From positions 34,174 through 98,173 of the forward strand of contig CAYTMV010000001.1 in assembly GCA_964439015.1 (NCBI GenBank): a DNA stretch of 64,000 nucleotides, read 5' to 3'. Below the pieces are notes generated by a model. It saw only the letters and a program-made list of their open reading frames with translations, did no database searches and had not been told where the DNA came from. This document shows positions 41,046 through 56,936 of the stretch, piece after piece. This DNA is from an uncultured Gemmobacter sp. (lineage in GTDB: Bacteria; Pseudomonadota; Alphaproteobacteria; Rhodobacterales; Rhodobacteraceae). A program made the position numbers and the translations under genes. Each line of letters begins with the position of its first letter. Position 1 is the first letter of the stretch.

Positions 41046-42077
41046 ATGACTGAAAAGCTGATCCTCCGTGCGCTGAAGGGCGAGATTCTGCCAACGCCGC
41101 CGATCTGGATGATGCGGCAGGCAGGGCGCTATCTGCCGGAATACCGGGCAACGCGGGCAGAGGCCGGAGATTTTCTTTCGCTGTGCTATAACCCGGAATT
41201 GGCGGCCGAGGTGACCTTGCAGCCGATCCGGCGCTATGGCTTTGATGCGGCGATCCTCTTTGCCGACATCCTGCTGTTGCCGCAGGCGCTGGGACCGAAG
41301 CTGTGGTTTGAAACCGGCGAAGGTCCGCGGATGGAGACGACCACGACGATGGCGCAGGTGCAGGCGTTGAAGCCGAAAGAGGCGATCCATGACATGCTGG
41401 CACCGGTCTATGAAACCGTGCGTATCCTGTCACGAGAGCTGCCGCGCGAGACCACGCTGATCGGGTTTGCCGGGGCGCCCTGGACGGTCGCCACCTACAT
41501 GATTGCCGGGCGCGGGTCAAAGGATCAGGGCGCGGCGCATCGGCTGAAGGATAGCGACCGGGCGACCTTTGTTGCGCTGATCGAGGTGATTACCGAGGCG
41601 ACCATCGACTACCTCTCCGAGCAGGTGAAGGCCGGGGCCGAGGTGGTCAAGCTGTTCGACAGTTGGGCCGGCAGCCTGAAGGGGGCGGATTTTACCGATT
41701 TCGCGCTGAAGCCCGCCGCCCGCATCATTGCGGAACTCAAGGCGCGCCACCCCGGTCTGCCGATCATCGCCTTTCCGCGCGAGGCGGGGCAGGGCTATAT
41801 CGGGTTTGCCAAGGCGACCGGGGCCGATTGCGTGGCAATCGACAATTCCGTCACGCCCGAATGGGCGGCGGCAAATGTGCAGGTCGATGGCTGCGTGCAG
41901 GGTAATCTGGCGCCGCACCATCTGGTGACCGGGGGTGAGGCGCTGGTGCGCGAAACCCGGCGCGTGGTCGAGGCCTTCCGCAACGGTCCGCATATCTTCA
42001 ACCTCGGCCATGGCATTACGCCGGACGCTGACCCCGAGAATGTGGCGCGGATGATCGCGGCGGTGCGGGGGGCGTGA
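41046..42077 (+). CDS. hemE: uroporphyrinogen decarboxylase
   Basis: 343 aa with a CAGGAG RBS and the [15 protein letters not shown] motif. Confidence 0.9.
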
Positions 42078-42086
42078 CGCCCCCAC

Positions 42087-42422
42087 TCAGACCGTCAGCC
42101 CCATCTCGCGCAGCGCGGTCAGGGCGGCTTCGGCCCCCTCGCAGGTTTTCAGCCGCACGGCCACCGTGCCTGCATAGCCGAAGCGGCCCGACAGCGCGGG
42201 GCGGATCGTCGCTTCCAGACCCAGCGGGCCAAGGGTCAGCGCGTCCAACGCATCCTCGGCGCCAAAGCCTTCGTCATTCACCTCGAACCAGATCGGGCCG
42301 CCGTCGAGGGCTTGGCTGAACAGCACGTAATCGTCGCGCTTCGGGTCGACGAAGCCAACGAAACGCCGGCCATCCTCTGCCGTCACAGTGGCATAGCCCG
42401 CCTTCACCACGATATCCGCCAT
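42087..42422 (-). CDS. hypothetical small cytoplasmic protein
   Basis: 111 aa from MADIVVKAGY. It has no TM helix and I recognise no family. It sits at the hemE-proximal edge of the accessory block, divergent from the diflavin reductase. Confidence 0.4.
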   Translation of the reverse strand: MADIVVKAGYATVTAEDGRRFVGFVDPKRDDYVLFSQALDGGPIWFEVNDEGFGAEDALDALTLGPLGLEATIRPALSGRFGYAGTVAVRLKTCEGAEAALTALREMGLTV

Positions 42423-42588
42423 CTTGCCGTCCTCCATTCTGTCGGGTGCATACGCGGTTTGGCGCTCTTTCACCACGTCGTTTTCCGGGGCGTGGCCTTG
42501 GTGGAGGCGCGTGGACGGCACGCACCTGTTCCGAGTGCAGCGTTCCGGAAGGATGGATGTGCCGGTTGTTTTACCCCCCTGCGCAATC

Positions 42589-42604
42589 TGGCACAGGTCT
42601 TGCA
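42589..42604 (+). promoter_or_regulatory. sigma-54 (-24/-12) promoter TGGCAC-AGGTC-TTGCA
   Basis: Perfect match to TGGCAC-N5-TTGCA, 26-38 nt upstream of the reductase start codons. A 21-nt stretch including it is identical to the promoter at 56279..56299. Confidence 0.75.
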
Positions 42605-42641
42605 TGGGGAGGGAAAGGTTTCCGTCAAGATGAGATGTCCC

Positions 42642-44309
42642 ATGCAGCAGGTAGTTCCCGTCGCGCAGAGCCAGCAGGGCGCGGCTTCGATTCATGTATT
42701 GTTCGGCACCCAGACCGGCACGACCGAAATGGTCGCATCGGATATCGAGGACGCGCTGGCGGCCAAGGGCTTTGCGGTCTCTGCCCCGCGCGGTCTGGAT
42801 GAGGTGACCATGGCCGAGCTTTCCGGTCTGGGCACGGTGCTGGTTGTCTGCTCAAGCTATGGCGATGGCTGGTTTCCGGATGCGGCGGTCGATTTCTACG
42901 AGGCGCTGACCGCGCCGGATGCGCCGGATCTGACGGGTCTCAGCTTTGCTGTGCTTGGGTTTGGCGACAGCGGTTATGATGATTTCTGCGCGGCCGGTCG
43001 TCTGCTGGACGAGGCGTTGGCGGCCTGTGGGGCCTTGCGTATCCACCCTCGCGGCAGCTGCGACATTGTCTATGAGCAGGCTGCCGAAACCTGGACGGAG
43101 GGCGTGCTGTCGGTGCTGCAAACACGCCGCGCCGAGGGTGCGGTGGCGGCCGTGGCCGCGCCCGTGGTGCTGCGGGAAAAAGGTGAGCGCCCGAAATGGA
43201 CCCGCGCCCATCCCTGCGCGGCGCGGCTGGTGGAAAACCGTCTGTTGTCCGATCCCGCCTCGGACAAGGAAATCCGGCATTTCCGCATCGAGCTGGGCGA
43301 GGACGGGCCGGCTTATGAGGTCGGGGATGCGCTGAACATCCTGCCGGAAAACGATCCGGCACTGGTCGAGGCTTGGCTTGACCGCAGCGGCGTCGCGCCC
43401 GAGACGGTCCTTCCGGGCCATGATCGCCCCTTTGCCGACATGCTGCGGGATGGTCTGGAGATCGTGACCCCCTCGCGGGAATTGCTGGAGTTGATGGCCA
43501 AACGCGCAGCGGGGGGGGAACTTGGGCGGCTGATGGCACAAGGCGACCGCGCCGGGCTTGAGGCCTGGCTGTGGGGGCGCGATGCGCTGGACCTTCTGAC
43601 GGAGGTGCCCGAAGTCACGCTGTCGCCTGAGGAGCTTGTATCGGTGCTGCGTCCGCTGCAGCATCGGTCCTATTCGATTGCCTCCAGTGCGCGGGTCTTG
43701 CCGCATGCAGTGGATCTGACGGTGTCGGTGGTGCGCTTTGACAGAAATGGGCGGGCCCATGGCGGGGTCTGCTCGACCTATCTGGCAGACCGGCTGCCGG
43801 TCGGTGGCGCGGTGAACGTGTTTGTTACGCCCAATTCGGCGTTCCGGGTGCCGTCGGACCCGGCGGTGCCGATGATCATGGTTGGTCCCGGCGCCGGCAT
43901 CGCCCCGTTCATCGGCTTTTTGCAGGAGCGTGCGGCGGTCGGCGCAACGGGCAGCAACTGGCTGTTCTTCGGTGATCGGCGCCGCGCGCATGACTTCATC
44001 TATCGCGCCGAGCTGGAGGCGTGGCAGCAGCAGGGGGTTTTGACCCGGCTGGATCTGGCCTTCTCGCGCGATGGCGCGGAAAAGGTCTATGTGCAGGACC
44101 GGATGCGCGCCGCCGGGGCCGATCTTTTTGCCGCACTGGAGGCAGGGGGGCATTTTTACGTCTGCGGTGACGCGCAGCGCATGGCCCCCGATGTCGAGGC
44201 GGCGCTGCTTGAGGTCATTGCCGAGCATGGCGGTCTGGATGCTGCGGGGGCGCAGGAATATCTGGCGCGGTTGCGGCGCGAAAGGCGCTATCTGCGCGAC
44301 GTTTACTGA
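42642..44309 (+). CDS. diflavin reductase (flavodoxin + FAD/NADPH domains, CysJ/CPR-like)
   Basis: FMN motifs are VLFGTQTGTTE and SSYGDGWFPD. The FAD motif is RSYSIASS and the NADPH motif is GPGAGIAPFIGF, with a C-terminal RYLRDVY. The start is at MQQVV; an alternative ATG lies at 42630. Confidence 0.8.
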   Translation: MQQVVPVAQSQQGAASIHVLFGTQTGTTEMVASDIEDALAAKGFAVSAPRGLDEVTMAELSGLGTVLVVCSSYGDGWFPDAAVDFYEALTAPDAPDLTGLSFAVLGFGDSGYDDFCAAGRLLDEALAACGALRIHPRGSCDIVYEQAAETWTEGVLSVLQTRRAEGAVAAVAAPVVLREKGERPKWTRAHPCAARLVENRLLSDPASDKEIRHFRIELGEDGPAYEVGDALNILPENDPALVEAWLDRSGVAPETVLPGHDRPFADMLRDGLEIVTPSRELLELMAKRAAGGELGRLMAQGDRAGLEAWLWGRDALDLLTEVPEVTLSPEELVSVLRPLQHRSYSIASSARVLPHAVDLTVSVVRFDRNGRAHGGVCSTYLADRLPVGGAVNVFVTPNSAFRVPSDPAVPMIMVGPGAGIAPFIGFLQERAAVGATGSNWLFFGDRRRAHDFIYRAELEAWQQQGVLTRLDLAFSRDGAEKVYVQDRMRAAGADLFAALEAGGHFYVCGDAQRMAPDVEAALLEVIAEHGGLDAAGAQEYLARLRRERRYLRDVY

Positions 44310-44330
44310 TCGCACTCCTTCAGGATGGCA

Positions 44331-44365
44331 AAGGCCGCGCCCCGGTCAAGGGCGCGGCCTTTTCG
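44331..44365. terminator. bidirectional terminator between the reductase and the amidotransferase-like gene
   Basis: 12-bp stem AAGGCCGCGCCC/GGGCGCGGCCTT followed by TTTCGG. Confidence 0.6.
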
Positions 44366-44384
44366 GTTTCAAGGGGCGCGCGGA

Positions 44385-45101
44385 TCAGCCGGCCTTCGCC
44401 TCGATACCTGCGCCGCGCATCAGGGCGGCGACCTTGCGGGCAAGCGGGGCATTGTCGACCTCAGACTGCGCGAGTTTGCCCTTGGCTTCGGCGGCGTGGT
44501 CGTGGCTGATCCACTCACCCGCCAGATCATCCGTCAGATCCTGCATGAATTCCTTTGTGAATTCAGGGTGAAACTGGACACTCAAGGCAGGGAAGTCATA
44601 GGCAATGACGCCAAAGGGGCAGAAATCATTGCCCCCGGACGAGCGGGCCGAGGGTGGCAGAACCTCGACCTGATCCTGATGGAAGACCAGGACGTCCTGA
44701 GGGGCGAGGCCAAGATCGCCGAAATGATAGGGCTGCGGTCCGGTGGCCACGCCCTTGTCGGATTTGCGCACCGCGCCGCCAAAGGCTGCCGCCATGATCT
44801 GATGGCCAAAGCAGATGCCGAACATCGGGATGCGCGCCTCGGCCAGACGGTTGAGGAAACGCTGCACATCCAGCATCCAGGGCAGGTTTTCATAGACGCC
44901 ATGCTTTGAGCCGGTCAGCAGATAGCCATCATAGTCCGCCGGATCTTCTGGCAGGGCCTCGCCCGAGACGACGCTGATAGTGGTAAATGTGGCTTCTGGC
45001 AGGGCCGGGCCAAGCCAGTTGCGCGCCATCTGCGGATATGTCCCGTGCTGGTCACGCAATTGCTCGGGGGTAAGGCCGTTTTCAATGATGCAGATTTTCA
45101 T
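44385..45101 (-). CDS. class I glutamine amidotransferase-like protein (PuuD-type gamma-glutamyl amide hydrolase candidate)
   Basis: 238 aa with the GATase1 nucleophile elbow GICFGHQ and a His (FHPE) near the C-terminus. Confidence 0.7.
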   Translation of the reverse strand: MKICIIENGLTPEQLRDQHGTYPQMARNWLGPALPEATFTTISVVSGEALPEDPADYDGYLLTGSKHGVYENLPWMLDVQRFLNRLAEARIPMFGICFGHQIMAAAFGGAVRKSDKGVATGPQPYHFGDLGLAPQDVLVFHQDQVEVLPPSARSSGGNDFCPFGVIAYDFPALSVQFHPEFTKEFMQDLTDDLAGEWISHDHAAEAKGKLAQSEVDNAPLARKVAALMRGAGIEAKAG

Positions 45102-45120
45102 CGCGTCTTCCTTTTGCGGT

Positions 45121-46632
45121 TCAGCCGCCGAGATGGATCCAGACCGATTTGGTCTGGGAATACTGGTGCAGGGCTTCTAGGCACTTGTCGCGGCCGTTGC
45201 CAGATTGCTTGACGCCGCCCCAAGGCGCCGTGGCATCGCGGTCGAAATAGGTGTTCACCCAGACCATGCCGCTTTCGACATCGCGGGCAAAACGGTGGGC
45301 GCGGCCCAGGTCGCGGGTCCAGACCGAGGCGCCCAGACCGAAGATCGAGCTGTTGGCCAGTTCCAACCCATGTTCCATGTCGCGGATGGGCAGCACGACG
45401 CCCACCGGCCCAAAGATCTCGTGCGCGGCAATCGTCATGTCGTTGCGCGCCTCGGTGAACAGGGTGGGCGAGATGTAGAGGCCATCCTCCAGCCCCTCGG
45501 GTGCGCCCCCGCCCATGGCCAGATGCGCGCCCTCTTCCCGGCCCTTGGCGATATAGCTGCAGACCGTCCGGTGCTGGCGGTCATCCACCATTGGCCCCAT
45601 GCTGGTGGCCGGGTCCAGTGGATCGCCGGGCTGATAAAGTGCTGCGGTTCTGTCGATGAAACGCTGCAGAAATTCATCATGGATCGACCGTTCGACCATG
45701 ATCCGCGATCCGGCGGCGCAAACCTCGCCCTGATTGGAATAGATGCCATGCACGGCGTTTTCCACGGCGCGATCCAGATCGCAATCGGCCAGGATGATCT
45801 GGGGCGACTTGCCGCCACACTCGGTGGTGACATGCTTGAGGTTGGACTCGCCGGCATAGCGCATCATCAGCCCGCCGACCGGCACCGATCCGGTAAAGCC
45901 GATCTTGTCCACGTCCATGTGCCGGGCCAGCGCCTGCCCGGCATCCGAACCCGAGCCATTGACGACGCTGAACACCCCCGCCGGCCCGCCGGCCTCGGCA
46001 AACAGCCGCGCCAGCAGCACGGCCGACATGCCGGTCTGTTGGGCGGGCTTCAGCACCACCGAGTTGCCCATCGCCAACGCCGGACCCAGTTTCCAGCAGG
46101 CCATCAGCATCGGATAGTTCCACGGCACGATCAGCCCGACGACCCCCAGCGGCTGGCGCAGCACATAGTGCAGGGCGCCTGGGTCGGTATTGGTCACGGC
46201 CCCTTCGATCTTGTCGATCGCCTCGGCGGCGAAGCGGATGTTGGCGACCGCCGAAGGCACGTCAAAGCCCAGCATCCCCGATACGGTCTTGCCCATCTCG
46301 ACACTGTCCAGCAGCGCAAATTCAGCCGCGTGGGCGCCGATCAGATCGGTAAAGCGCAGCAGCACATCCATGCGCGCGCGCGGCGGCAGGCGCGACCAGA
46401 CGCCCTCGCGGAAGGCGCGGCGGGCGGCTTTTACCGCGCGATCGACATCTTCCGCCGTGCCCGCGGCCATCGCGGCAATCACCTGCCCGGTGGCAGGGTT
46501 GACGCTGTCATAGCGGCCACCGGCAGCGGCATCGCAAAGCGCGCCGTCGATGAACATCCGGGTTTCATAGGCGTGGCTGGCGGCAAGGGCGTGCCATTCG
46601 GTCTTGCTGGCAGGGATGGGGCGCGAAGTCAT
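45121..46632 (-). CDS. NAD(P)-dependent aldehyde dehydrogenase
   Basis: 503 aa from MTSRPIP with an AGGAG RBS. It has ECGGKSP and the catalytic Cys in GEVCAAGSR. Confidence 0.85.
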   Translation of the reverse strand: MTSRPIPASKTEWHALAASHAYETRMFIDGALCDAAAGGRYDSVNPATGQVIAAMAAGTAEDVDRAVKAARRAFREGVWSRLPPRARMDVLLRFTDLIGAHAAEFALLDSVEMGKTVSGMLGFDVPSAVANIRFAAEAIDKIEGAVTNTDPGALHYVLRQPLGVVGLIVPWNYPMLMACWKLGPALAMGNSVVLKPAQQTGMSAVLLARLFAEAGGPAGVFSVVNGSGSDAGQALARHMDVDKIGFTGSVPVGGLMMRYAGESNLKHVTTECGGKSPQIILADCDLDRAVENAVHGIYSNQGEVCAAGSRIMVERSIHDEFLQRFIDRTAALYQPGDPLDPATSMGPMVDDRQHRTVCSYIAKGREEGAHLAMGGGAPEGLEDGLYISPTLFTEARNDMTIAAHEIFGPVGVVLPIRDMEHGLELANSSIFGLGASVWTRDLGRAHRFARDVESGMVWVNTYFDRDATAPWGGVKQSGNGRDKCLEALHQYSQTKSVWIHLGG

Positions 46633-46649
46633 GTGGGCTCCTGAGGATG

Positions 46650-46678
46650 AAAAAGGGGGCGCGCCGATGCGCGCCCCC
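46650..46678 (-). terminator. intrinsic terminator/attenuator inside the P450-ligase-ALDH gene string
   Basis: 10-bp perfect GC stem GGGGGCGCGC/GCGCGCCCCC with a 4-nt loop. On the minus strand it is followed by TTTTT, and it lies 17 nt before the ALDH start. Confidence 0.55.
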
Positions 46679-46697
46679 GATGCCGGAAAGGCGGGTG

Positions 46698-48200
46698 TCA
46701 GGGCAGGCAGTTCATGTAACGCCCGATGTCCCAATTGGTGACTTCCTTCAGGAAACGCTGCCAATCGTCGCGCTTCATCAGGTCATACAGCTCGTAGAGG
46801 CGGCCAGGCATGGCCTCCAGCACGATCGGGTCGGCCGCCAACGCGTCCAGCGCCTCTTTGAGGTTCATCGGGATCAGGTCGACATGCTCACCGGCCTTCA
46901 TCACCTCGACCACGTTGCGGGTTTCCGCCGGGCCGGGGTCGATGCCTTCGCGGATGCCTTCGTCGATCGCCTTCAGCAGCGCGCCGCAGAACAGGTAGGG
47001 GTTCACCATCGCATCCACCGCGCGGAACTCGAACCGGTCGGGCGAGGAGATGCGGATGGTGCAAGAGCGGTTCTGCGGACCCCAGTTGGCCCCGATCGGC
47101 GCCCAGAGGCCGACATCGGCAAAGCGGCGATAGGAGTTGACGGTCGAGGCCCCGATGGCGGTCAGCGCACCGATATGCTTCAGCGCACCGCCAAGGGCAT
47201 GCAGACCCAGTTGCGACGGCATCCAGCTGCCGTCCTTGCCCTCGAACTCGTTGGTGCCGCCGCGGTTATAGGTGAACACCTCTTCCATGCCCGGCAGATC
47301 GCCCTCGACCGAGCGGACGATCTCGTCGCCGTCGCCGCGCCACAGCGAGCAGTTGTGGTGGCATCCCAGCGCCGGATAGCCGACCATCGGCTTGGCCATG
47401 AAGCAGGCCTTCAGCCCGTGCTGCCGCGCCACCTCGTCGGCGATCTGGCGATAAGTGGTCAGGCGGTCGCAGGTGCGCAGCGCGTTGTCGAAGCTGAAAT
47501 TCAGCTCCAGCAGGCCCGGCGCATCCTCGACATCGCCCTGAACCATATCGAGGCCCATCGCCTCGGCATATTCATAGACCTGGGTCCACAGACCGCGCAC
47601 CGACTCGAACTGGCCGATGTGATAGGCATGCGGACCGGTGATCCCTTCATAGGGGAAGGCGCTGCCGTCATTGGTGGGGCGCAGCCACAGCATCTCGGGC
47701 TCCAGCCCCAGACGCAGGTGCAGACCGTCATGGGCGGCGCGGAATTCGCGCTCGAAACGCTTGAGGTTGCCGCGCACGTCGCATTCGAAATACATGCCCG
47801 GATTGACGTCTTCCTCAAGGCTGCGGAACAGCGTGCAGAACACCCGGCCGACATTCTTGTCCCACGGCAGTTGCACGAAGGTTTCCGGGTCGGGCAGGGC
47901 CAGCAACTCGCCGTCATTGGCCGAAAAGCCGTAAAGCTGGCCGTGGATGTCGCTGGCCACGTCGGTCACGCCGCCGATCCAGGTCTGGATGCCTTTCTTG
48001 GCGGTCCGTTCCCAATGGCGGGCGGGCAGCGCCTTGCCCAGAACGCGACCGGTGATCGTCACGAATTGGTAGTAGATGTATTTCACGCCGGTGGCGTTGA
48101 TCTTCTCGCGCACCCGGGCAATCCGCTCCTGACGCTGCGGGTCCGCGATTTCGCGGAACAGATCGCATTCTGCCAGTGTGGAAAAGTGATCTTTTGCCAT
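46698..48200 (-). CDS. glutamine synthetase family ligase (gamma-glutamyl-amide synthetase candidate)
   Basis: 500 aa. GS catalytic-domain motifs are retained: LEPEMLWL, DVEDAPGLLELNF, KPMVGYPALGCHHNCSLW, NSYRRF and FEFRAVDAMVNPY. Confidence 0.8.
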   Translation of the reverse strand: MAKDHFSTLAECDLFREIADPQRQERIARVREKINATGVKYIYYQFVTITGRVLGKALPARHWERTAKKGIQTWIGGVTDVASDIHGQLYGFSANDGELLALPDPETFVQLPWDKNVGRVFCTLFRSLEEDVNPGMYFECDVRGNLKRFEREFRAAHDGLHLRLGLEPEMLWLRPTNDGSAFPYEGITGPHAYHIGQFESVRGLWTQVYEYAEAMGLDMVQGDVEDAPGLLELNFSFDNALRTCDRLTTYRQIADEVARQHGLKACFMAKPMVGYPALGCHHNCSLWRGDGDEIVRSVEGDLPGMEEVFTYNRGGTNEFEGKDGSWMPSQLGLHALGGALKHIGALTAIGASTVNSYRRFADVGLWAPIGANWGPQNRSCTIRISSPDRFEFRAVDAMVNPYLFCGALLKAIDEGIREGIDPGPAETRNVVEVMKAGEHVDLIPMNLKEALDALAADPIVLEAMPGRLYELYDLMKRDDWQRFLKEVTNWDIGRYMNCLP

Positions 48201-48239
48201 CTTGTTTCTCCCTGTGAATGGCTGGTCTTGTTTGGCGCG

Positions 48240-49550
48240 TCACCCTTCGAGGTAACGGCGTCTTTCGGCATCGCTGACCTCGCGGGCGAGGCTGGCGGTT
48301 TCGGCGGCGCAAAAGGCCGTGAAATTGTCGATGAAGGCCCCGCCGAACAGGCGGCGGGCATGATCGCTGGCGGCCAGGCGGGCGGCGGCCTCGGGCAGGG
48401 TGCCAGGCAGACGCGCGCCCACGATGTCATCCGGGCCGGAATTGGGGCTGGGATCGGGGGCCTGCAGCCCGCGTGCGATGCCGTCGAGGCCCGCGCCCAG
48501 CATCAGCGCCAGCGTCAGATGGGTGTTGCAATCCGTGCCGGGCAGGCGGAACTCCAACCGCGCGGTGTCGCCGGCCGAGGGGCAGGAGCGGACCGCCGTG
48601 GTAAAGCACCAATCCGACCAGCTGACCGATTTCGGCGCCCAGGTCCCCGGCGCGAAGCGGCGATAGGCGTTGACGGTGTGGGCGCAAAGCGCAAACGCTT
48701 CGGGCACGATCTGGGTCATGCCGCCGATGAAATTGCGGGCCAGCGCGTTGGTTTCGCCTGCGGGATCGGCAAACAGGTTGCGCCCCGTCGCCTTGTCGAT
48801 CAGCGACAGCGTGACGTGACCGCCCAGCCCCGGATAATCCGGCCCCAGCGAGGGCATGAACGTCGCGGTCATGTTGCGCTGGCGGGCAAAGGCGCGGCTG
48901 GCCAGCCGGAAGAAACTGGCGTCATCCGCGGCCTTGAGGCCGTTGGTTGCGCCCAGCGTGGCCTCGAAACAGCCCGGCCCCAGCTCGCCGCCGACGCCGA
49001 ACAGGTCGATGCCATGGGCCAGCAGCGCCTGTTCCCATGCGGTGACAAAGGCTGCCTCGGTCGCGGCGGTCGTGCCGGACCAGCACTTGTTGTCGGCGGC
49101 AAACTGGGCCGGCGGCGCAAAGCCCCTGGCGCGCAGGCTGGACGCAGTTTCATTGAGAAAGATCACCTCGAACTCGAAGGCGGCGCGCACGTCAAAGCCC
49201 ATCTCGGCCGCACGGGCGATCTGCGCTTTCAGCACGTTGCGCGGCATGATCGGCGCATATTGGCCCGCCAGATCGGCGATGATCGCGGCCGAGCGCGCCT
49301 CGAACCCGAAGGGGCGCAAAGACGCGGTGTCGATCTCCAGCTCTTCGGTGCGATAGGGGCCGCCGCCGAACAGGGCTTCGCCCGCATCCCAATGGCCGAC
49401 GACATTGGCAAAGCGCGGCTCTGCGGCCCATTGCAGAAACTGGTCGCGGCGCAGCCTGCGTTCGCGAAACAGGCCCATATTGTCGAACTGGCCGACATGG
49501 ATGATGTCGTAACCGTGGTCATGCAGCAGTTGGCTGAGGCTTTTGGCCAT
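48240..49550 (-). CDS. glutamine synthetase family protein, divergent paralog
   Basis: 436 aa. It has the GS fold motifs FEFEVIFL, GGELGPGCFEATL, NAYRRF and LEFRLPGTD. The ATP/His motif reads GLGGHVTLSL, so the second His of the GS H-x-H pair is not conserved. Confidence 0.75.
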   Translation of the reverse strand: MAKSLSQLLHDHGYDIIHVGQFDNMGLFRERRLRRDQFLQWAAEPRFANVVGHWDAGEALFGGGPYRTEELEIDTASLRPFGFEARSAAIIADLAGQYAPIMPRNVLKAQIARAAEMGFDVRAAFEFEVIFLNETASSLRARGFAPPAQFAADNKCWSGTTAATEAAFVTAWEQALLAHGIDLFGVGGELGPGCFEATLGATNGLKAADDASFFRLASRAFARQRNMTATFMPSLGPDYPGLGGHVTLSLIDKATGRNLFADPAGETNALARNFIGGMTQIVPEAFALCAHTVNAYRRFAPGTWAPKSVSWSDWCFTTAVRSCPSAGDTARLEFRLPGTDCNTHLTLALMLGAGLDGIARGLQAPDPSPNSGPDDIVGARLPGTLPEAAARLAASDHARRLFGGAFIDNFTAFCAAETASLAREVSDAERRRYLEG

Positions 49551-49613
49551 GGAATTTCGGTCCTGTTGGGGAAGGGGGCGCGCGGAGCCGCAGCCCCGCG
49601 CGTGGCTTGGCGT

Positions 49614-50822: not shown

Positions 50823-50872
50823 CGGTATCTCCCTGATGCATGCGTTCTGGCTGCGCGTGTCATCAGGGCCTA

Positions 50873-50889
50873 TGAAATTGCCGTGCCAG
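50873..50889 (-). promoter_or_regulatory. sigma-54-like promoter CTGGCACG-GCAA-TTTCA
   Basis: The -24 element TGGCACG is perfect. The -12 element is TTTCA instead of TTGCA, so the conserved G is replaced. It lies 50 nt upstream of the P450 ATG, immediately after the rpoN paralog. Confidence 0.45.
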
Positions 50890-50960
50890 TTTGCCAAAAT
50901 GGGCAAGCACGCGGGATGCTGCCGCGGCCGGGTGCAGGCGCATCCTTTTGAGAAAATGTT

Positions 50961-52271
50961 TTATTTCAGATACTTGCGCCGGTCTGATGTGGCCGGGATG
51001 CCCATTTGCGCGCGATATTTCGCGATGGTGCGCCGCGCAATGGACAGGCCGCGCTGCGACAGACGCGCGGCTATTGCCGCATCGCTGACGGGCTTTCGGG
51101 GGTTCTCGGCGTCAATCTGGGCGCGGATCGCCCCGCAGAGCCATGCGGCAGACACCCCTTCCGCCGCATCATCGCCGCCGATGGATTGCAGGAAAAATCG
51201 TTTCAGGGCCAGAGTGCCGGTCGGCGTCTGGATGAAAACCGCATTGACCACACGGCTGACAGTGCTTTCGCTGAGATTGAGCTGCTCGGCGAGGCTGCGC
51301 TGCGACAGGGGCCGCAGATTGCCGGGGCCGCGTTCCAGAAAATCACGTTGGTGCTGCACCAGTGCAGCGCCAATATTCAGCACGGTCCGTTGCCGGCGGG
51401 CGACGGCCTCTACCAGCCAGCGCGCGGTGCCATAAGCCGCCCGCAGTTCGGGCGAGGGCTTGCCGCGCTCCAACCGCTGCATCAGCGTTTCATCAACCGC
51501 GACAGTGGGCAAAATCGACCGGTCCAGCCGCACCTGCCACGCGCCGGTCGCATTCTGCTCTGCCAGCAGATCGGGGCGGATGGTTTGCACGGGCGGGATC
51601 GAGAAGGCGAGGCCCGGCTTTGGGTCCAGCCGCCGCAGCCGCTGCAAAACCGCATCAACGGATGCGCGAGGCAATCCGGTTGCGCGGGTCAACGCGTTGG
51701 GGCCGCCGCGTTCCAGTTCTGGCAGATGGGTCAGCACCGTCTCGGCGGCTGCGTCCAAGGCCCCTGCCTCGGCCAGTTGCAGGCGCAGACAGTCGGCCAG
51801 GTTGCGGGCGAAGAGCCCGGTGGGTTCGATCCGCTGCAATTTTTCCAGCACGGTTTCCAGGCGCCGCACCGGCACACCATGGCGGGCAGCGATCTGCTCG
51901 GGGGGCTCGGCCAGCCAACCAGCGGGCAGCAGCGCATCCGTCAGCAGAAGCGCGAGGCCACGCTCGGCCTGTGAAACCCCGCAAAGCCCCATCTGCGCCA
52001 GAACGTGATCCATCAGGCAGGGGCCATCGGCCGAACCGGCGGCAAAGGGCAGGTCGTCAGCGTCCAGCCCGCCCGGCGAGGGGCTGCGCGAAAAAGGCAG
52101 CTCGAGTGGCGGGGCGCTGATGCGCAGCAGGGGGTTTGCATCCGCCTCGCGCTGCAGCATCGCTGTCAGTTCGATGGCATTCATCTGCAGGATTGCAAGG
52201 GCCCGCTGCATGTCCGGGGTCAGCGCCAGCAGCCGCTTTTGTCGAAGATCGAGGCCCGGATTGATCTTCAT
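50961..52271 (-). CDS. rpoN: RNA polymerase sigma-54 factor, short paralog
   Basis: 436 aa from MKINPGLDLRQ. It has region I (LALTPDMQRALAILQMN), an HTH (LNLSESTVSRVV) and the RpoN box (ARRTIAKYR). Confidence 0.85.
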   Translation of the reverse strand: MKINPGLDLRQKRLLALTPDMQRALAILQMNAIELTAMLQREADANPLLRISAPPLELPFSRSPSPGGLDADDLPFAAGSADGPCLMDHVLAQMGLCGVSQAERGLALLLTDALLPAGWLAEPPEQIAARHGVPVRRLETVLEKLQRIEPTGLFARNLADCLRLQLAEAGALDAAAETVLTHLPELERGGPNALTRATGLPRASVDAVLQRLRRLDPKPGLAFSIPPVQTIRPDLLAEQNATGAWQVRLDRSILPTVAVDETLMQRLERGKPSPELRAAYGTARWLVEAVARRQRTVLNIGAALVQHQRDFLERGPGNLRPLSQRSLAEQLNLSESTVSRVVNAVFIQTPTGTLALKRFFLQSIGGDDAAEGVSAAWLCGAIRAQIDAENPRKPVSDAAIAARLSQRGLSIARRTIAKYRAQMGIPATSDRRKYLK

Positions 52272-52281
52272 GGTGGTGGCG

Positions 52282-53676
52282 TCAGTCGGCCGGTTTGGTC
52301 TTGCGGACGATCGTGCCGATATCGACATCAAGGGCCGCGGCCGCCTTGCGCTTGCTGCCATGCATCGCAATTGCGGACTCGATCAGTTGACGCTCGTAGC
52401 GGGCGACCATCTCCTTGAGGGTCTTGCCTTCGATCGGTGTGACCGGGGGCGGGGCATCCGCGGTGACGGTGCCGCCTTCAAGGACGGGCGTCAGCTCATC
52501 TTCGCCCATGATCGAGATCTGCTGGATGATGTTGTAGAGTTCGCGGATATTGCCGGGATAATCATAGGTCATCAGCCGGGCGTGGAGTTCGGCGCTGAGG
52601 ACCAGCGGCTCTGACCGGCGCTGATTGACGATGGCGACAAACCGCTCGATCAGATGCGCGATCAGTTCGGGCGTGTCGCGCAGCGGGCGGATCGGCAGCT
52701 TGACCACCGCCAGCCGGTGATAGAGATCGCGCCGGAAGGTCCGGTCGTTCACCATCTCCAGCAATTCGCGATTGGTGGCCGAAATCACCCGCACATGCAC
52801 GGCCCGCGGCTTTGAGCCGCCAACGCGCTGCACCGTGCCATCCTCCAGAAACGACAGCAGTTTGGATTGCAGATGCAGAGGGATCTCGCCGACCTCGTCG
52901 AGAAACAGCGTGCCGCCCTCGGCCTGCTCGATCAGCCCCTTCTTGCCCGAGCTGAGCGCGCCGGTGAACGCGCCTTTCTCATAGCCGAACAGCTCGGATT
53001 CAAACAGCGTATCGGGAATGGCCGCGCAATTCACGACGATGAAGGGGTCAGAGGCGTCGCTGACGTGGCGGTGCAGGTGGCGGGCGATCTCGGTCTTGCC
53101 GACGCCGCTTTCGCCCGTGATGATGACCCGCGCATCCTGCACCAACGCGCGTTCGTCCAGGGCAATGATGCGGTCGAGGTAGGAGCAGATCTGCCGCTGG
53201 CGCAGGAAATCCGGGCGCACCTTGCGTTCGGCGCCGGGGGTGCGGCCCGCATGGGGCAGGCCAGTCGCGCGGCGTCGGGCATGGTCAAAGACCTCGAGGT
53301 CGCGCAGCTGCATCACCATGCCGCCATCCCCGCCCATCACCCGCCGCAGGGTCACGAAAACCGCCCCGCGGATCCCGCCGCGCAGCACGAAATCGCCATT
53401 GCCCTGCCGTTCGACCGCGCCCAGCACGGTATCCCAGTCATAGCCCCCCACGGAGCCCAGCGCCTCGGCATCCTGACCGGCCAGATCGGCGCCCTTGATG
53501 CCAAGGATCTGCCCGGCCTCGGCATTGATGAACACAAGGCGGCGGTCGCGGTTGATGACGACGATCCCGTCGGCAAAAGAGGCAACGCTGCGCAGGATCA
53601 GGTCGGTTGCGTCGCCCAGAGTGGGCGGGCGCGACCTGTGGGAAGGTGCCGTTTCCTCTGGGCGGGGGCTGGTCAT
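52282..53676 (-). CDS. sigma-54-dependent transcriptional activator (PAS-AAA+-HTH)
   Basis: 464 aa with Walker A GESGVGKT, the GAFTGA loop, Walker B LFLDEVGE and a C-terminal Fis-type HTH. Its ATG overlaps the stop of the upstream PAS gene (ATGA). Confidence 0.85.
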   Translation of the reverse strand: MTSPRPEETAPSHRSRPPTLGDATDLILRSVASFADGIVVINRDRRLVFINAEAGQILGIKGADLAGQDAEALGSVGGYDWDTVLGAVERQGNGDFVLRGGIRGAVFVTLRRVMGGDGGMVMQLRDLEVFDHARRRATGLPHAGRTPGAERKVRPDFLRQRQICSYLDRIIALDERALVQDARVIITGESGVGKTEIARHLHRHVSDASDPFIVVNCAAIPDTLFESELFGYEKGAFTGALSSGKKGLIEQAEGGTLFLDEVGEIPLHLQSKLLSFLEDGTVQRVGGSKPRAVHVRVISATNRELLEMVNDRTFRRDLYHRLAVVKLPIRPLRDTPELIAHLIERFVAIVNQRRSEPLVLSAELHARLMTYDYPGNIRELYNIIQQISIMGEDELTPVLEGGTVTADAPPPVTPIEGKTLKEMVARYERQLIESAIAMHGSKRKAAAALDVDIGTIVRKTKPAD

Positions 53677-54875
53677 TTTGCCAGGATCTCGTCTTGCTGG
53701 GGATCATCGGGCATCCGCGCCTGCGGCTTGCGGAGGGTGACGGCCAGATAGGGCAGGCCGCGCGTCTCGAACCGGCGGGCGTTCACTTCAGCCTGGATCG
53801 GCCCGTCATGGTGCTGGGCGTCGACCAGGATCGGCGCCCGCAGCGCCCCGGTCACGCTTTGCTCGGTCAGGGTCATCAGGCGATGCGGATGCGCGGCGGC
53901 GCTGACCAGCTTTTCCAGCGGCTGGCCGACGATCATGTCGGTGTTCATGCCAAAGAAAACCCGGGCGGCGGTGTTGGCCAGCAGGATCAGGCCGCTGCCA
54001 TCGACCAGCAGCAGGGCCTCGGGCACTGCCACGAGGGCCAGTTCCAGATCGCCCATCCGCTTGCGCAGCTCGTCATTGCGGCGCAGGTGCTTGGAGACAT
54101 CGCGCACCGTGCCCCACATCCTGTGCAGCTGGTTGTTGCGGATCAGCCCGCGCACGTCGTTTTCGACATCGACCGTGGTGCCGTCGTAACGGGTGTCGTG
54201 GGACAGCGCGCGCACCACGTCAAAGTTGTTGCGCAGCAGGAAAAGCGCGAAGGCCTCGTTTCCCGGGTTGCGGTCGAAGATCTCTCGCACCGGCCGGTCA
54301 TTCAGATCCTGATCATCCGGCAGCCGGTAAAACCGCCCCATCGCGGCGTTGCAAAACCGCCAATGCCGGCGGTTCTCGAACATCTGGCGTACGATCTCCT
54401 GCTCCGGGGCGGACAGGTCAACCGGCTCGGCATATTCGATGCACCAGCTGGGATCGTCCGAGGCGTTGAGGATGTCGATCAACACCGCCTTGCCCTCGGC
54501 AAGGGCGTCGCGGTCGGCAAAAGAGGCGTGATGCCATTTGAAGGTCCGCAGGGTCCGTGTCGGACCCGAGCCCTCAACCTCGACGACCGCACAGACGTTC
54601 TGTGGCCTTCCATCGGCGCGGCGCAGTTCAAGCACAAGGGCCTTGGGCGCGTTTTGGGGGTGGTCAAGGATGTTGGAAAGATGTGCGCGGGCGCTGCGGC
54701 TGTAGATCCGCGACCAGTCGGCGCCCGTGATCTCTTCTGTCGCATAACCCAGCCATGCGGCCTGACGGTCGTCGCAAGCCAGGATGATCCCCTGATCCGA
54801 AATGCGGTCGATCATCGCCACGTTCTCATCCTCTGGCGAGGGGATCGGGGAAGATGCGGCGGAAACGGGTGTCAT
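53673..54875 (-). CDS. multi-PAS-domain protein without output domain
   Basis: 400 aa with PAS-like repeats (for example ILACDDRQAAWLGYATEEITG and LLVDGSGLILLANTAARVFFG). I detect no kinase, GGDEF, HTH or receiver motif. The start codon is uncertain because there is no clear RBS. Confidence 0.6.
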   Translation of the reverse strand: MTPVSAASSPIPSPEDENVAMIDRISDQGIILACDDRQAAWLGYATEEITGADWSRIYSRSARAHLSNILDHPQNAPKALVLELRRADGRPQNVCAVVEVEGSGPTRTLRTFKWHHASFADRDALAEGKAVLIDILNASDDPSWCIEYAEPVDLSAPEQEIVRQMFENRRHWRFCNAAMGRFYRLPDDQDLNDRPVREIFDRNPGNEAFALFLLRNNFDVVRALSHDTRYDGTTVDVENDVRGLIRNNQLHRMWGTVRDVSKHLRRNDELRKRMGDLELALVAVPEALLLVDGSGLILLANTAARVFFGMNTDMIVGQPLEKLVSAAAHPHRLMTLTEQSVTGALRAPILVDAQHHDGPIQAEVNARRFETRGLPYLAVTLRKPQARMPDDPQQDEILAK

Positions 54876-54965
54876 GGCGGGGCCTGCGATGCGTCGGGGA
54901 TACTGCGTTCCGTCAATGCTGGCGCTGACGGATACAGGCGGTCAAGGGGCTTGTTGTGGGTGATG

Positions 54966-54999
54966 TAAGTATGCGCTGCAAAACTGCAGCGCATACTTA
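54966..54999. repeat. perfect 15-bp-arm inverted repeat TAAGTATGCGCTGCA-AAAC-TGCAGCGCATACTTA
   Basis: Base pairing was checked position by position (54966-54980 with 54985-54999). It is relatively AT-rich for this genome and lies between the MFS stop and the PAS gene start. Confidence 0.8.
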
Positions 55000-55023
55000 A
55001 TTTTGCAGCGGATGAGTCCGATT

Positions 55024-56238
55024 TCAGGCCGCGCTTGGCACGCGCCGACGCAGGCCCCGCAGGCTGCGATAGGCGATGAACGCGCCGCCAAGCGTGGCGA
55101 GGATCAGCAGGTTATTCACATGCCCGACAATGACATAGCTGCCATCCGCGATCAGCGCGCCCCCAAGGCTGGGCCCGACGAACAGGCCGACCATCAGCGC
55201 GCTGCCTGCCGCGGCCGCCACCCGGCCCTCCACATCCATCTCGGCGGCAAGGGCCGTCAGATAGGACAGGCAGAAGAAATAGCTGCCAACCCAGAACAGC
55301 GCCGAAATCGAATAGAGCGTGGCATCATTGGACGCCTGGCTGACCAGATAGGTCACCAGACCCGAGGCGATGATTCCGACGACCAGTGGCAGACGCAGGC
55401 CAAACCGCGCCCCGATCACCGTTGCCAGCAGCGGACCGACAAGCCCGAACAGCGCCGAGTTCGCCAGAAGCGCGCCAACCTCGGCTTCGCTCAGTCCCGC
55501 TTCCATGCCGGTCGTGGCGATGAACGCCCACGAAATGGTGTCGCGCAACGAGAAGCAGAAGAAGGCGATCAGGATGGCGATGCCGCCCATGTCGAGGATC
55601 GAGAAGTGGCCACGATCGGTCTGGTGCGCCTTCACGAACTCCTGGGTCGGTGCGGCTTTCGGCAGAAACACCAGCAAAGGCGACAGGACGGCAACGGTGC
55701 CGGCCAATGCCAGATAGACCCCGGTTTGCCCGTAGGCCTCGCTGATCGGGCCGAAGATCCGGGAAATGACCGCCATCACGAAGACGAACAGCACGGTCAT
55801 GTGGCCGGCAAACTTTTCGGGCTGCTCTGCATTGGCGACGGTTGCATTGCCGGTGGCCAGCGCCAGACCCGCGCCCAGACCAGCGCAGGTCCGCAGCACC
55901 ATCAGCGACTCATAGCTGCCCCAGATGGCGCTGGCGAGGTTGGCCAGGACGACGATGGCCGCGCCTGCCATCGCAACCGTGCGGCGGTTGATGACCGCGA
56001 CCCGCGGCGCAAGCAGCACCGAAGTCACGAAGACGCCGGCAAATTCCAATGTGCTGAGCAAACCGGCCTGGGCCTCGTCAAGGCCGAGGCTGGCCATGTT
56101 GGCACCCACCATGAAGGGCAGCGCGATCAGCGCCAGCAATCCGGTGCCATAGGCAGCGGCAAAGGCGGCCAGCAAGGTGCCCCAGTTGTTGGGCATCAAA
56201 TCCCTGAGCCCTCCGGGGGCGAGGGGTCTTTCGGTCAT
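55024..56238 (-). CDS. MFS transporter
   Basis: 404 aa from MTERPLAP with a GGGAGA RBS and a 12-helix profile. The longer ORF call (to 56313) would swallow the sigma-54 promoter. Confidence 0.75.
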   Translation of the reverse strand: MTERPLAPGGLRDLMPNNWGTLLAAFAAAYGTGLLALIALPFMVGANMASLGLDEAQAGLLSTLEFAGVFVTSVLLAPRVAVINRRTVAMAGAAIVVLANLASAIWGSYESLMVLRTCAGLGAGLALATGNATVANAEQPEKFAGHMTVLFVFVMAVISRIFGPISEAYGQTGVYLALAGTVAVLSPLLVFLPKAAPTQEFVKAHQTDRGHFSILDMGGIAILIAFFCFSLRDTISWAFIATTGMEAGLSEAEVGALLANSALFGLVGPLLATVIGARFGLRLPLVVGIIASGLVTYLVSQASNDATLYSISALFWVGSYFFCLSYLTALAAEMDVEGRVAAAAGSALMVGLFVGPSLGGALIADGSYVIVGHVNNLLILATLGGAFIAYRSLRGLRRRVPSAA

Positions 56239-56279
56239 GGCAGTCTCCCTGTTTGTCTTGTTTTTCTGTTGATCGGGGA

Positions 56280-56295
56280 TGCAAGACCTGTGCCA
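56280..56295 (-). promoter_or_regulatory. sigma-54 (-24/-12) promoter TGGCAC-AGGTC-TTGCA
   Basis: Perfect consensus on the minus strand, 42 nt upstream of the MFS ATG. It lies within a 21-nt stretch identical to 42585..42605. Confidence 0.75.
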
Positions 56296-56370
56296 GATTT
56301 GTCCACCTGACAAGAAACCTGTCGTTTCAACACGCTAGGCTTGCGGGGCGGTTGGTGTTGTATCCAGTGG

Positions 56371-56395
56371 TGCAGCAGGGCTGCATCACGTGATG
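56371..56395. promoter_or_regulatory. candidate upstream activator sites: TGCAGC-AGG-GCTGCA and CATCACGTGATG
   Basis: Two adjacent or overlapping perfect palindromes lie 76-100 bp upstream of the -24 element, which is the usual distance for an enhancer-binding protein. Confidence 0.3.
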
Positions 56396-56768
56396 AGGTT
56401 GCGCTTCCGTTGGCGGCCCGGCCTTGGCGCCGGGAGGGATGTGGATGGTCTGGATCTCGCGGTGGGCTGTGCTGCGCCTGCATCCGGGCCCTGTGGCGAC
56501 GGGCCTGAGCGCCGACTTTGCAGCCAATCATCCGACCATTTCGGCGCGGGCTTCGGCCCCGGCGCTGTTGGAGGTGATGAACCGCCTGACCCCGGCCGAC
56601 AGCGGCACCTTCCGGGACTGGAAGGGCCGGCCGGTGCCGTGGGGAGGTCAGTCTGCGAGGACGTGGCGTAGTTTCATCGCCTCTGCCGGTGTGAGTCCGG
56701 TTGGCCATCGAAGTGAATGGTGGAGATGGAGTTTGAAGGCTTCAACCAAGGACCGTGCGAAGTCGCCG

Positions 56769-56930
56769 ATGACCAATACCACCATGGACCTGTCCGGGTT
56801 TCTGCCAAGGGAGTATCACGAAGACTGCTTGCACGGCATCGCCGAAGCCGTGCTGCGACTTTTCACGAAGACCGAGGTGGAAGGCATCGTCGGCGCCGGA
56901 CGACTCGAACGCAGCGGCTACCGAACCCAG
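56769..56930 (+). pseudogene. IS256-family (mutator-type) transposase N-terminal remnant
   Basis: MTNTTMDLSGFLPREYHEDCLHGIAEAVLRLFTKTEVEGIVGAGRLERSGYRTQ follows the pattern of IS256 transposase N-termini (..DLL.E.I....QRLMELEVE...GA...ERS...R.GYR). It stops after about 55 aa at the hemF 3-prime end. Confidence 0.5.
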
Positions 56931-56936
56931 CTGGGA

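Follow-up and report, generated by a model that had tools for sequence, protein, structure and literature searches.

Sigma-54 is normally a single-copy, genome-wide factor. When a short rpoN paralogue lies among catabolic genes, two questions are raised, namely whether the sigma factor belongs to these genes and what the genes degrade. Both are asked here of a 64-kb stretch of DNA from an uncultured Gemmobacter sp. (contig CAYTMV010000001.1, positions 34,174 to 98,173; called the window below), in which an island of about 13.7 kb is bounded by hemE (41022-42077, plus strand) and hemF (56937-57791, minus strand). The island encodes an RpoN, an activator (bacterial enhancer-binding protein, bEBP), a stand-alone PAS protein, a transporter of the major facilitator superfamily (MFS) and enzymes for a putative amine pathway (Table 1). 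We read it as a horizontally acquired amine-catabolic island with its own sigma-54, activator and PAS protein, and we give this reading a probability of roughly 70%.

Genes were called from six-frame open reading frames (ORFs) together with Pfam and NCBIfam scans. All ten genes listed in an earlier, sequence-only reading of this DNA were found with the domains it had named (MFS transporter, PAS-only protein, activator, RpoN, cytochrome P450, two ligases, aldehyde dehydrogenase (ALDH), hydrolase and reductase), and the GAFTGA motif of the PAS-AAA+-HTH activator was read in the sequence. The block that it delimited (42.1-56.9 kb) holds, in addition, a 112-aa ORF and IS256/SDR fragments. The stop codon of the PAS gene overlaps the bEBP start (ATGA) and the bEBP stop is 10 nt from the rpoN ATG, and therefore PAS, bEBP and rpoN form one tightly packed operon. 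The reductase gene, on the plus strand, is convergent to the minus-strand string of P450, ligase, ligase, ALDH and hydrolase genes.

Conservation of the cassette

When 5.8 billion proteins were searched, the close relatives of the island RpoN amounted to about a dozen clusters (42-99% identity). Beyond these clusters, the protein merges with ordinary alphaproteobacterial RpoNs at approximately 40%. The island RpoN and its relatives formed a monophyletic clade in a neighbour-joining tree drawn without bootstrap. Ten lineages of this clade were compared: the window, Stappia sp. (L048), Oricola nitratireducens (L051), plasmid p2 of Paracoccus sp. TOH (L049/L060), the metagenomic loci L053, L054, L055 and L057, and two Tara Oceans types (L062/L063 and L064).

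Every clade locus that was reached contains the same PAS protein and activator beside RpoN and, where the contig reaches, the P450, both ligases, ALDH, hydrolase and reductase are also present. The module of PAS protein, bEBP and P450 was found in 10/10 clade loci. As a control, distant RpoNs (at most 41% identity) were taken from an RpoN scan of genome contigs, and in these 42 non-clade loci (637 kb) the island proteins were found in none (0/42), generic AAA+ similarity aside. All P450s with at least 75% identity to the window P450 are linked to rpoN, while those with 70% identity or less (the Pseudomonas type and relatives) are never rpoN-linked and have no -24/-12 sites.

The transporter is an MFS protein in the window, Stappia, Paracoccus and L062 (82% identity between the window and Stappia proteins) and a PotABCD-like ABC importer in Oricola, L054, L055 and L064. 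In L062, the PAS-activator pair is divergent from rpoN. The complete cassette, with a P450 80% identical to that of the window, was present in the Tara Oceans contigs CEVO01125111.1 and CEVK01086481.1 (L062/L063) and in a TARA_R110002110 scaffold (L064). The cassette is thus found in marine plankton, besides sludge or freshwater bacteria. In Oricola (L051, 964-2981) and L055 (294-2310), two loci with an ABC transporter, the PAS gene has genes for acetate kinase and phosphotransacetylase as its immediate upstream neighbours, with an additional ALDH gene in the former; these neighbours may hint at short-chain acyl products.

Sigma-54 promoters

The -24/-12 promoters that had been claimed before the transporter gene, the P450 string and the reductase gene were all located. 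The core site TGGCACAGGTCTTGCA lies at 42589-42604 (plus strand), with the same letters at 56280-56295 (minus strand), and a third core site with one mismatch (TTTCA), TGGCACGGCAATTTCA, lies at 50873-50888 (minus strand). All three have GG and GC elements 10 nt apart, as expected of sigma-54 promoters, which they are predicted to be; they are intergenic and in the orientation of the gene, and the start codons, which have Shine-Dalgarno-like sequences, follow 26-51 nt downstream. In the 64-kb window, the perfect motif TGGCAC-N5-TTGCA was observed twice against an expectation of 0.04. When one mismatch was tolerated, four sites were observed against 1.7 expected, three of which are in the island and the fourth inside an unrelated gene. 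We conclude that the three promoters are real sequence features and not chance occurrences.

Equivalent sites recur across the cassette loci before the P450 gene, the reductase or fusion gene, the transporter gene and, in some loci, the PAS gene. At least 20 were counted in the related loci, with a background of 6 perfect sites per 637 kb. The P450 gene is preceded by such a promoter in every cassette locus containing that region; the reductase promoter is also present in Stappia and Oricola, and in Paracoccus it stands before a P450-reductase fusion gene. The regulatory operon is without a -24/-12 promoter in the window, Stappia and Paracoccus. The local regulon of the sequence-only reading is therefore backed by the exclusivity of the clade (10/10 versus 0/42) and by promoters conserved in position.

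The outer two promoters (reductase and MFS) form an exact 21-nt inverted repeat, AATCTGGCACAGGTCTTGCAT, around the whole conserved module. Transposon ends were considered as an explanation and rejected, as the two matching promoters of Stappia differ from each other. It seems more likely that gene conversion occurred recently or that promoters of equal strength were selected for.

Upstream of four promoters, about 90-113 nt from the -24 element, palindromes of the CTGCA type were observed (TGCAGC-N3-GCTGCA or GCTGCA-N4-TGCAGC). One belongs to the MFS promoter of the window, and the others are in L051 (11332-11347), L054 (4723-4738) and L055 (3066-3081); the other cassette promoters are without one. 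The window palindrome is, tentatively, a candidate activator binding site.

Regulatory proteins

The island RpoN has the AID, CBD and DBD domains above the Pfam cut-offs as well as the RpoN box (ARRTIAKYR), and its score of 324.5 with TIGR02395 exceeds the cut-off of 277.35; it is a sigma-54 protein on these grounds. The activator has the make-up of a bEBP (Sigma54_activat with an E-value of 3.5e-62, AAA_lid_14 and HTH_50), with the motifs GESGVGKT and GAFTGA.

The stand-alone PAS protein consists of a PAS domain, a conserved family-specific middle domain and a second PAS domain. When the profile of its family was compared with solved structures, the N-terminus matched PAS domains of the PAS kinase and HIF types and the C-terminus those of the FixL and DosP types. 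For the middle part (approximately residues 125-265), nothing matching was found in Pfam or PDB. It is the most conserved stretch of the family (WCIEF...RMWGTVRDV), with near-invariant Cys145 and Cys175, and it may be a ligand- or redox-sensing module. A single-sequence AlphaFold model of the protein had a pLDDT (predicted local distance difference test) of 37. With about 73 representatives at E<1e-30, the family is wider than the RpoN clade.

NifL-NifA was considered as the nearest model for this pair. There, as in the island, a separately encoded PAS protein gene lies directly upstream of the activator gene with a start/stop overlap, and the overlap suggests stoichiometric partner control as in NifL-NifA. 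The island protein differs from NifL in having no histidine-kinase-like C-terminal domain and in a middle domain that fits no known family. As only PAS-type domains and the unassigned middle were found in it, and no kinase-like domain, we do not class it as a NifL-type anti-activator. Between the window and Stappia, identity is 65% for RpoN, 62% for the PAS protein and 74% for the activator, compared to 87-91% for the enzymes, and so the regulators evolve faster than their targets.

Is the sigma-54 dedicated to the island?

From co-occurrence, the RpoN is probably private and the block self-contained, as the sequence-only reading had put it; the promoter consensus is canonical, so that the sigma-54 of the host could also read it.

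The strongest rival explanation starts from this point. It holds that the RpoN is the host's general or redundant sigma-54, which simply lies here, and that any sigma-54 serves the island promoters, all of which fit the universal consensus. It draws on the other rpoN genes carried by the host's relatives and on the several loci in which the rpoN-containing operon would itself be sigma-54-dependent, judging by its -24/-12 promoter. However, a general sigma factor is at odds with the exclusive co-occurrence in the clade, with a plasmid-borne rpoN copy in Paracoccus and with the position of the nearest RpoN relatives, which are in another order and outside the host lineage. The faster evolution of RpoN than of the enzymes (65% versus 87-91%, window versus Stappia) fits a small, dedicated promoter set. 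In addition, the RpoN paralogues of Cereibacter sphaeroides function only with their cognate activators (PMC11999139). We therefore regard a non-dedicated RpoN as unlikely, although of all rival explanations it deserves the most attention.

Cereibacter (Rhodobacter) sphaeroides also provides the best precedent. Each of its studied paralogues has its own activator (RpoN1/NifA, RpoN2/FleQ and RpoN3/AprX; PMC11999139), and the arrangement of an extra sigma-54, one activator and a small promoter set, in the same order, is like that of the island. The functions of the cited paralogues are in nitrogen fixation, in flagella or at a repressor gene. In the island, by contrast, the sigma factor and its activator are transferred as a unit with the PAS protein and the catabolic targets, both from one order to another and to a plasmid, and the RpoN has a clade of its own. 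Rhizobiales, Burkholderiales, Xanthomonadales and Rhodobacter are all known to include bacteria with additional rpoN copies (PMC3162934), and RpoN homologues are encoded by 338 plasmids in PLSDB.

The P450 and its reductase

The P450 contains the haem motif FGLGPHHCIG, ExxR and the D-T pair of the I-helix. Its best PDB match is AurH (E-value 3e-76) and it matches bacterial class-I P450s (AurH and CYP125). We propose that it is the hydroxylase of a gamma-glutamylated amine.

The reductase consists of Flavodoxin_1, FAD_binding_1 and NAD_binding_1 domains. The best PDB match is CysJ (6efv; E-value 8e-115), with an alignment that starts at residue 39 of the solved construct. The protein is not assigned to CysJ itself, because it reaches 524 bits with TIGR01931 (cysJ; cut-off 668) and 438 with NF008197 (cut-off 838), the CysJ N-terminal domain is absent, and none of the island ORFs scanned is cysI-like. 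In the sequence-only reading it was a CysJ/CPR-like, eukaryote-style reductase; a separate, convergently encoded diflavin protein is indeed present, but it is of the CysJ type and not specifically eukaryote-style.

Gene fusion elsewhere is standard evidence for a partnership of separate genes. On Paracoccus sp. TOH p2 (NZ_CP098363.1; L060, 7136-10048), one 970-aa ORF combines a P450 (residues 12-400, 61% identical to that of the window) with a diflavin reductase (residues 430-970, 47% identical), and it lies behind a perfect -24/-12 promoter. This fusion supports the partnership of P450 and reductase in the window, and we propose the diflavin reductase as the redox partner of the island P450. 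In the PLSDB gene table, which is incomplete and omits pseudogenes, only the reductase half is listed ("sulfite reductase flavoprotein subunit alpha") and the P450 is not shown. Fusions of the CYP102/P450 BM3 type share the architecture of a flavin mononucleotide (FMN) and a flavin adenine dinucleotide (FAD)/NADPH part with the island reductase, and the Paracoccus orthologue is truly fused. In the window, by contrast, P450 and reductase are separate and convergent, and the P450 was not reported as CYP102-like.

Ligases, aldehyde dehydrogenase and hydrolase

The 500-aa ligase has kept its catalytic motifs, and we propose it as a gamma-glutamyl-amine synthetase. The 500-aa and 436-aa proteins scored 219 and 126 bits with the GlnA model TIGR00653 (cut-off 429), 271 and 166 bits with the type III glutamine synthetase model TIGR03105 (cut-off 470), and 196 and 131 bits with the GGputSyn (PuuA) model (cut-off 650). 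Both are thus far below the cut-off of every glutamine synthetase model and are not ordinary glutamine synthetases, an outcome that would have counted against the pathway model by the terms of the sequence-only reading had it been otherwise. PuuC is the best NCBIfam model for the ALDH (541 bits; cut-off 850), which is 86% identical to the Stappia protein. In the hydrolase the triad is intact, with the Cys in GICFGHQ and the His-Glu pair in FHPE, and a role as gamma-glutamyl-amide hydrolase, similar to PuuD or IpuF, is proposed.

The 436-aa protein is 26% identical to the 500-aa ligase and likewise to the single ligase of Pseudomonas sp. KU43P (see below). In all 8 orthologues, a recognisable beta-grasp N-domain and the N-R/K-S/T motif are missing, although the motif is kept in the nearest solved relatives (5dm3 and 11zs); the metal-binding glutamates, the histidine and other arginines are retained. 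No counterpart is present in the Pseudomonas-type clusters. The divergence of the 436-aa protein tracks that of the 500-aa ligase (r 0.95; 10 pairs that are not independent of one another). The 436-aa protein may be a working ligase that uses another acceptor, or else a partner without catalytic activity.

Among the island genes no PuuB-type gene was found, and the ligases and ALDH are below the Puu cut-offs, so the block is not a Puu pathway. With scores below the family cut-offs, the island falls outside the Puu, CysJ and glutamine synthetase families; it would work like the ipu and pip routes.

Proposed pathway

Outside the cassette clade, the piperidine degrader Pseudomonas sp. KU43P is the nearest cultured comparator; it was missed in the sequence-only reading. 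Identity between the window proteins and those of its cluster is 66% for the P450, 48% for the hydrolase (a GATase), 47% for the ALDH, 41% for the nearby MFS protein and 39%, over the full length, for the 500-aa ligase; the FMN domain of the reductase is 33% identical to the KU43P flavodoxin. By sequence, an apparently orthologous P450, a glutamine-synthetase-like ligase, a hydrolase and a flavin-based electron supply via FMN and FAD are clustered in both. The KU43P cluster differs in having one ligase, with FAD reductase and flavodoxin as separate proteins. Its regulation differs as well, with a GntR-type regulator and no rpoN, bEBP, PAS protein or -24/-12 promoters. We take this cluster to be the pip operon of piperidine and pyrrolidine degradation, in which PipA would make gamma-glutamylpiperidide and the P450 PipBa would oxidise it.

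Two more routes follow the same logic. The ipu route of isopropylamine begins with a gamma-glutamyl amide synthetase; a P450 system then works on the glutamylated compound, an amidotransferase-like hydrolase comes next, and aldehyde dehydrogenases follow downstream (PMC6776027). This route was compared (Pseudomonas sp. KIE171 and Arthrobacter aurescens TC1) by pathway logic, not by sequence, and it differs in a P450 fed by ferredoxin and ferredoxin reductase and in having no sigma-54 cassette. In the Puu pathway of E. coli, the amine is glutamylated, oxidised to the aldehyde, oxidised further by an ALDH and deglutamylated; the step of the PuuB oxidase would be taken by the P450 and reductase in the island. 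The Puu/Ipu analogy that had been drawn earlier holds, although the KU43P cluster is closer than either comparator. Also, the mycobacterial P450s PipA and MorA take part in piperidine and morpholine utilisation, and their relatives in Gulosibacter adjoin glutamine-synthetase genes (PMC9477822).

From homology, we infer the following scheme. The MFS transporter would import the amine, and the 500-aa ligase would join it, at the expense of ATP, to the gamma-carboxyl of glutamate. The P450, with NADPH electrons supplied via the diflavin reductase, would hydroxylate the gamma-glutamyl amide. A ring amine hydroxylated at the carbon beside the nitrogen would open to an aldehyde, which the PuuC-like ALDH would convert to a gamma-glutamyl amino acid, and the amidotransferase-like hydrolase would then free the amino acid and glutamate. 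For regulation, the three effector units (MFS; P450-ligase-ligase-ALDH-hydrolase; reductase) would each start at a sigma-54 promoter. By analogy with NifL-NifA, the PAS protein may sense the inducer via its middle domain and gate the activator by PAS-PAS contact, and the activator would remodel RNA polymerase carrying the island RpoN. With promoters and sigma factor carried together, the island could work in hosts in which sigma-54 is absent, specialised or not expressed.

Substrate

The sequence-only reading held that the substrate cannot be read from the sequence. This is still so for the exact compound, but the class has been narrowed by comparison. A saturated N-heterocyclic secondary amine (pyrrolidine, piperidine, piperazine and similar) appears somewhat better placed than all other classes together.

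Piperazine was considered specifically due to Paracoccus sp. TOH, a strain isolated for its ability to degrade piperazine, according to Cai et al. 2013 as cited in PMC5172442. Its p2 cluster lies behind three -24/-12 promoters and contains, beyond the core to which the window is limited, a second ALDH, a gamma-Glu-GABA-hydrolase family protein, a DAO-type FAD oxidase, a serine hydroxymethyltransferase and a cupin. We conjecture that this set would suit a route in which the ring of a glutamylated piperazine is opened and the product is then cleaved to two-carbon units, with glycine at the end, and that the two nitrogens of piperazine might be the rationale for two ligases. Even so, piperazine itself is rather unlikely to be the substrate, and we name it as a lead.

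The same enzymes could handle an alkylamine with an open chain, whether primary or secondary (ipu- or theanine-like). In this version, the P450 would hydroxylate the carbon beside the nitrogen, the gamma-glutamyl alkylamide would give an aldehyde and glutamine, the ALDH would act on the free aldehyde, and the amidotransferase-like protein would be a glutaminase. The ipu route does combine a ligase, a P450, an amidotransferase-like hydrolase and an ALDH on isopropylamine (PMC6776027), and acetate kinase and phosphotransacetylase upstream of the cassette in Oricola and L055 fit small-aldehyde products. Those two genes, however, lie upstream of a sigma-54 promoter and may be unrelated, and the nearest model of the ALDH is PuuC, which acts on a gamma-glutamyl aminoaldehyde. 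The identity of the P450 to that of a piperidine degrader, KU43P, together with its conserved partners, also argues against an alkylamine, which we consider quite improbable.

A polyamine (putrescine, spermidine or diaminopropane) was weighed as well, in a Puu- or Pau-type island in which the P450 replaces PuuB and two ligases serve two amino ends. The PuuC-like ALDH, the presence of two ligases, the gamma-Glu-GABA-hydrolase family gene of Paracoccus, the PotABCD-like importers with PotD-type binding proteins that replace the MFS protein in several loci, and the occurrence in marine plankton would all suit it. But the ligases, at 196 and 131 bits, are far from the gamma-glutamylputrescine synthetase cut-off of 650, no PuuB-type oxidase was found in the window, and the homology of the P450 points to N-heterocycles, so that a polyamine is very unlikely. 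A biosynthetic cluster making a natural product via gamma-glutamyl-protected intermediates, for which the AurH match of the P450 (aureothin biosynthesis) and the occurrence of similar ligases in such clusters could be cited, is hardly credible given the transporters in the cassette loci (several with ABC importers and periplasmic binding proteins), the ALDH and deglutamylating hydrolase, a block with no scaffold-forming enzymes, and the homology to clusters of isolates growing on piperidine (KU43P) or piperazine (Paracoccus sp. TOH).

Origin and mobility

By its ordinary chromosomal genes, the host is a Gemmobacter/Tabrizicola-like member of the Paracoccaceae, with an electron-transfer flavoprotein-ubiquinone oxidoreductase (ETF-QO) in the window that is 92% identical to that of Gemmobacter denitrificans. 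The island RpoN shares only 36-41% identity with the RpoNs of the host's relatives, while for the island enzymes identity reaches 86-90% with Stappia, a member of another order. At the hemF end, a fragment of an IS256-family transposase (N-terminal 53 aa) abuts the hemF stop and is 62% identical to copies on Paracoccus plasmids (tblastn; E-value 2e-11). The Paracoccus copy of the cassette is plasmid-borne, alongside Trb/TraA transfer genes. Taken together, the Stappia identities, the distant RpoNs of the host lineage, the IS256 remnant and the plasmid copy point to horizontal transfer, and the sequence evidence indicates that the island was horizontally acquired.

Several observations weigh against the reading given at the outset. 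With regard to origin, the GC content, skew and GC3 (third codon positions) of the island genes are the same as those of the flanks, and no empty insertion site was found, since a look-up with the exact HemF returned same-strain contigs that have the island or are too short. With regard to regulation, the canonical promoter consensus may be served equally well by the host sigma-54. The PAS-bEBP-rpoN operon of the window has neither a -24/-12 site nor a convincing sigma-70 site upstream, and in Oricola, L053, L055, L062 and L064 the regulatory operon has its own -24/-12 promoter, which points to positive feedback and would require some sigma-54 to be in place already. No common activator binding site was established, as k-mer counts over 10 upstream regions gave GC-rich noise. 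With regard to the pathway, the second ligase (436 aa) is without the conserved active-site arginine and the pip function of the KU43P cluster is our assumption. The Tara Oceans occurrence speaks against an exclusively man-made substrate such as piperazine, and suggests that a natural, marine substrate is likely.

Other features of the locus

The features of the island are collected in Table 1. The hairpin between the 500-aa ligase and ALDH genes resembles an intrinsic terminator in mid-operon, and a separate promoter for the ALDH and hydrolase genes was not found. It may be an attenuator or an mRNA-stability element, and a related GC-rich hairpin (49572-49598, minus strand) also lies between cistrons of the P450 operon. 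The stem-loop following the MFS gene is likely a terminator or RNA hairpin; its position is also filled in Stappia and Paracoccus, with different sequences. The 112-aa ORF between hemE and the reductase promoter has gene-like codon bias (GC3 0.82), matches no Pfam model and is missing from the other cassette loci. The SDR fragment was read by eye from the translation; Pfam found nothing in the short fragments. Rfam gave 0 matches across 40-59 kb, and the sole tRNA lies far away, at position 21.8 kb. The flanking genes are ordinary chromosomal ones (ubiA, pyr, mrp, ETF-QO, cco and hem).

Table 1 Features of the island and its junctions (window coordinates; aa, amino acids; nt, nucleotides)
Feature	Position	Strand	Remarks
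ORF, no assigned function	42090-42425	-	112 aa
Reductase promoter	42585-42605	+	AATC TGGCAC AGGTC TTGCA T; -12 element ends 26 nt before ATG at 42630
Diflavin reductase	42630-44309	+	559 aa; alternative start 42642
Bidirectional terminator hairpin, reductase/hydrolase gap	44330-44362	both	-43 kcal/mol each strand; z -4.3, -5.6; T-run on +
Class-I glutamine-amidotransferase-like hydrolase	44385-45101	-	238 aa; Pfam GATase, Peptidase_C26
Aldehyde dehydrogenase, PuuC-like	45121-46632	-	503 aa; Pfam Aldedh E 1e-165; start fixed from sequence
10-bp GC hairpin then U5, between 500-aa ligase and ALDH	46655-46678	-	-29 kcal/mol; z -3.9
Glutamine-synthetase-like ligase	46698-48200	-	500 aa; Pfam Gln-synt_C
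Second glutamine-synthetase-like protein	48240-49550	-	436 aa; Pfam Gln-synt_C only
Cytochrome P450	49614-50822	-	402 aa; Pfam p450
P450 operon promoter	50872-50888	-	TGGCAC GGCAA TTTCA T; 51 nt upstream of P450 ATG
rpoN paralogue	50961-52271	-	436 aa; Pfam AID, CBD, DBD
Enhancer-binding protein (bEBP)	52282-53676	-	464 aa; PAS, AAA+, HTH
Stand-alone PAS protein	53673-54875	-	400 aa; possibly 380 aa from Met21 at 54815
15-bp perfect stem-loop directly 3' of MFS gene	54966-54999	-	z -7.2; also CTGCA-type palindrome
MFS transporter	55024-56238	-	404 aa; Pfam MFS_1
MFS promoter	56279-56299	-	identical to reductase promoter; -12 element ends 41 nt before ATG
Perfect palindrome TGCAGC-N3-GCTGCA	56371-56385		90 nt upstream of -24 element, MFS promoter
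Junction debris	56463-56939	+	possible SDR C-terminal fragment 56463-56648; IS256 fragment 56769-56939

Novelty and significance

Extra rpoN copies, paralogues with cognate activators, and gamma-glutamylation/P450 routes for amines are already known. In the literature searched, no link of sigma-54 to a P450 catabolic island and no piperazine catabolic genes were found, although papers in subscription journals may hold some. Within that scope, the packaging remains undescribed, as the sequence-only reading had supposed, except that extra rpoN copies on plasmids or with cognate activators have precedents. As far as the literature was searched, the new combination is a mobile catabolic island with its own sigma-54, activator and PAS partner, a stand-alone P450 reductase of the CysJ type and a second glutamine-synthetase-like protein.

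A more ambitious reading joins three claims: that the RpoN is orthogonal to the host sigma-54 and forms a mobile "plug-and-play" regulon, that the PAS-only protein belongs to a class of ligand-sensing bEBP partners not described so far, and that the cluster is the basis of piperazine or N-heterocycle degradation, with two ligases for a two-nitrogen ring. That all three are true together is doubtful, and we offer the combination tentatively.

If the island is what we propose, a horizontally inherited sigma-54 in a catabolic island would extend the roles of extra copies (nitrogen fixation, flagella and few others) to mobile degradation. Three regulatory genes and a 16-bp promoter would then make up a compact, natural expression system that is insulated and transferable. 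The reading also predicts that a stand-alone reductase of the CysJ type is the physiological partner of a class-I-like bacterial P450. Finally, the cassette provides candidate genes for the degradation of saturated N-heterocycles, and these are available in the cultured Paracoccus sp. TOH, Stappia sp. and Oricola nitratireducens.

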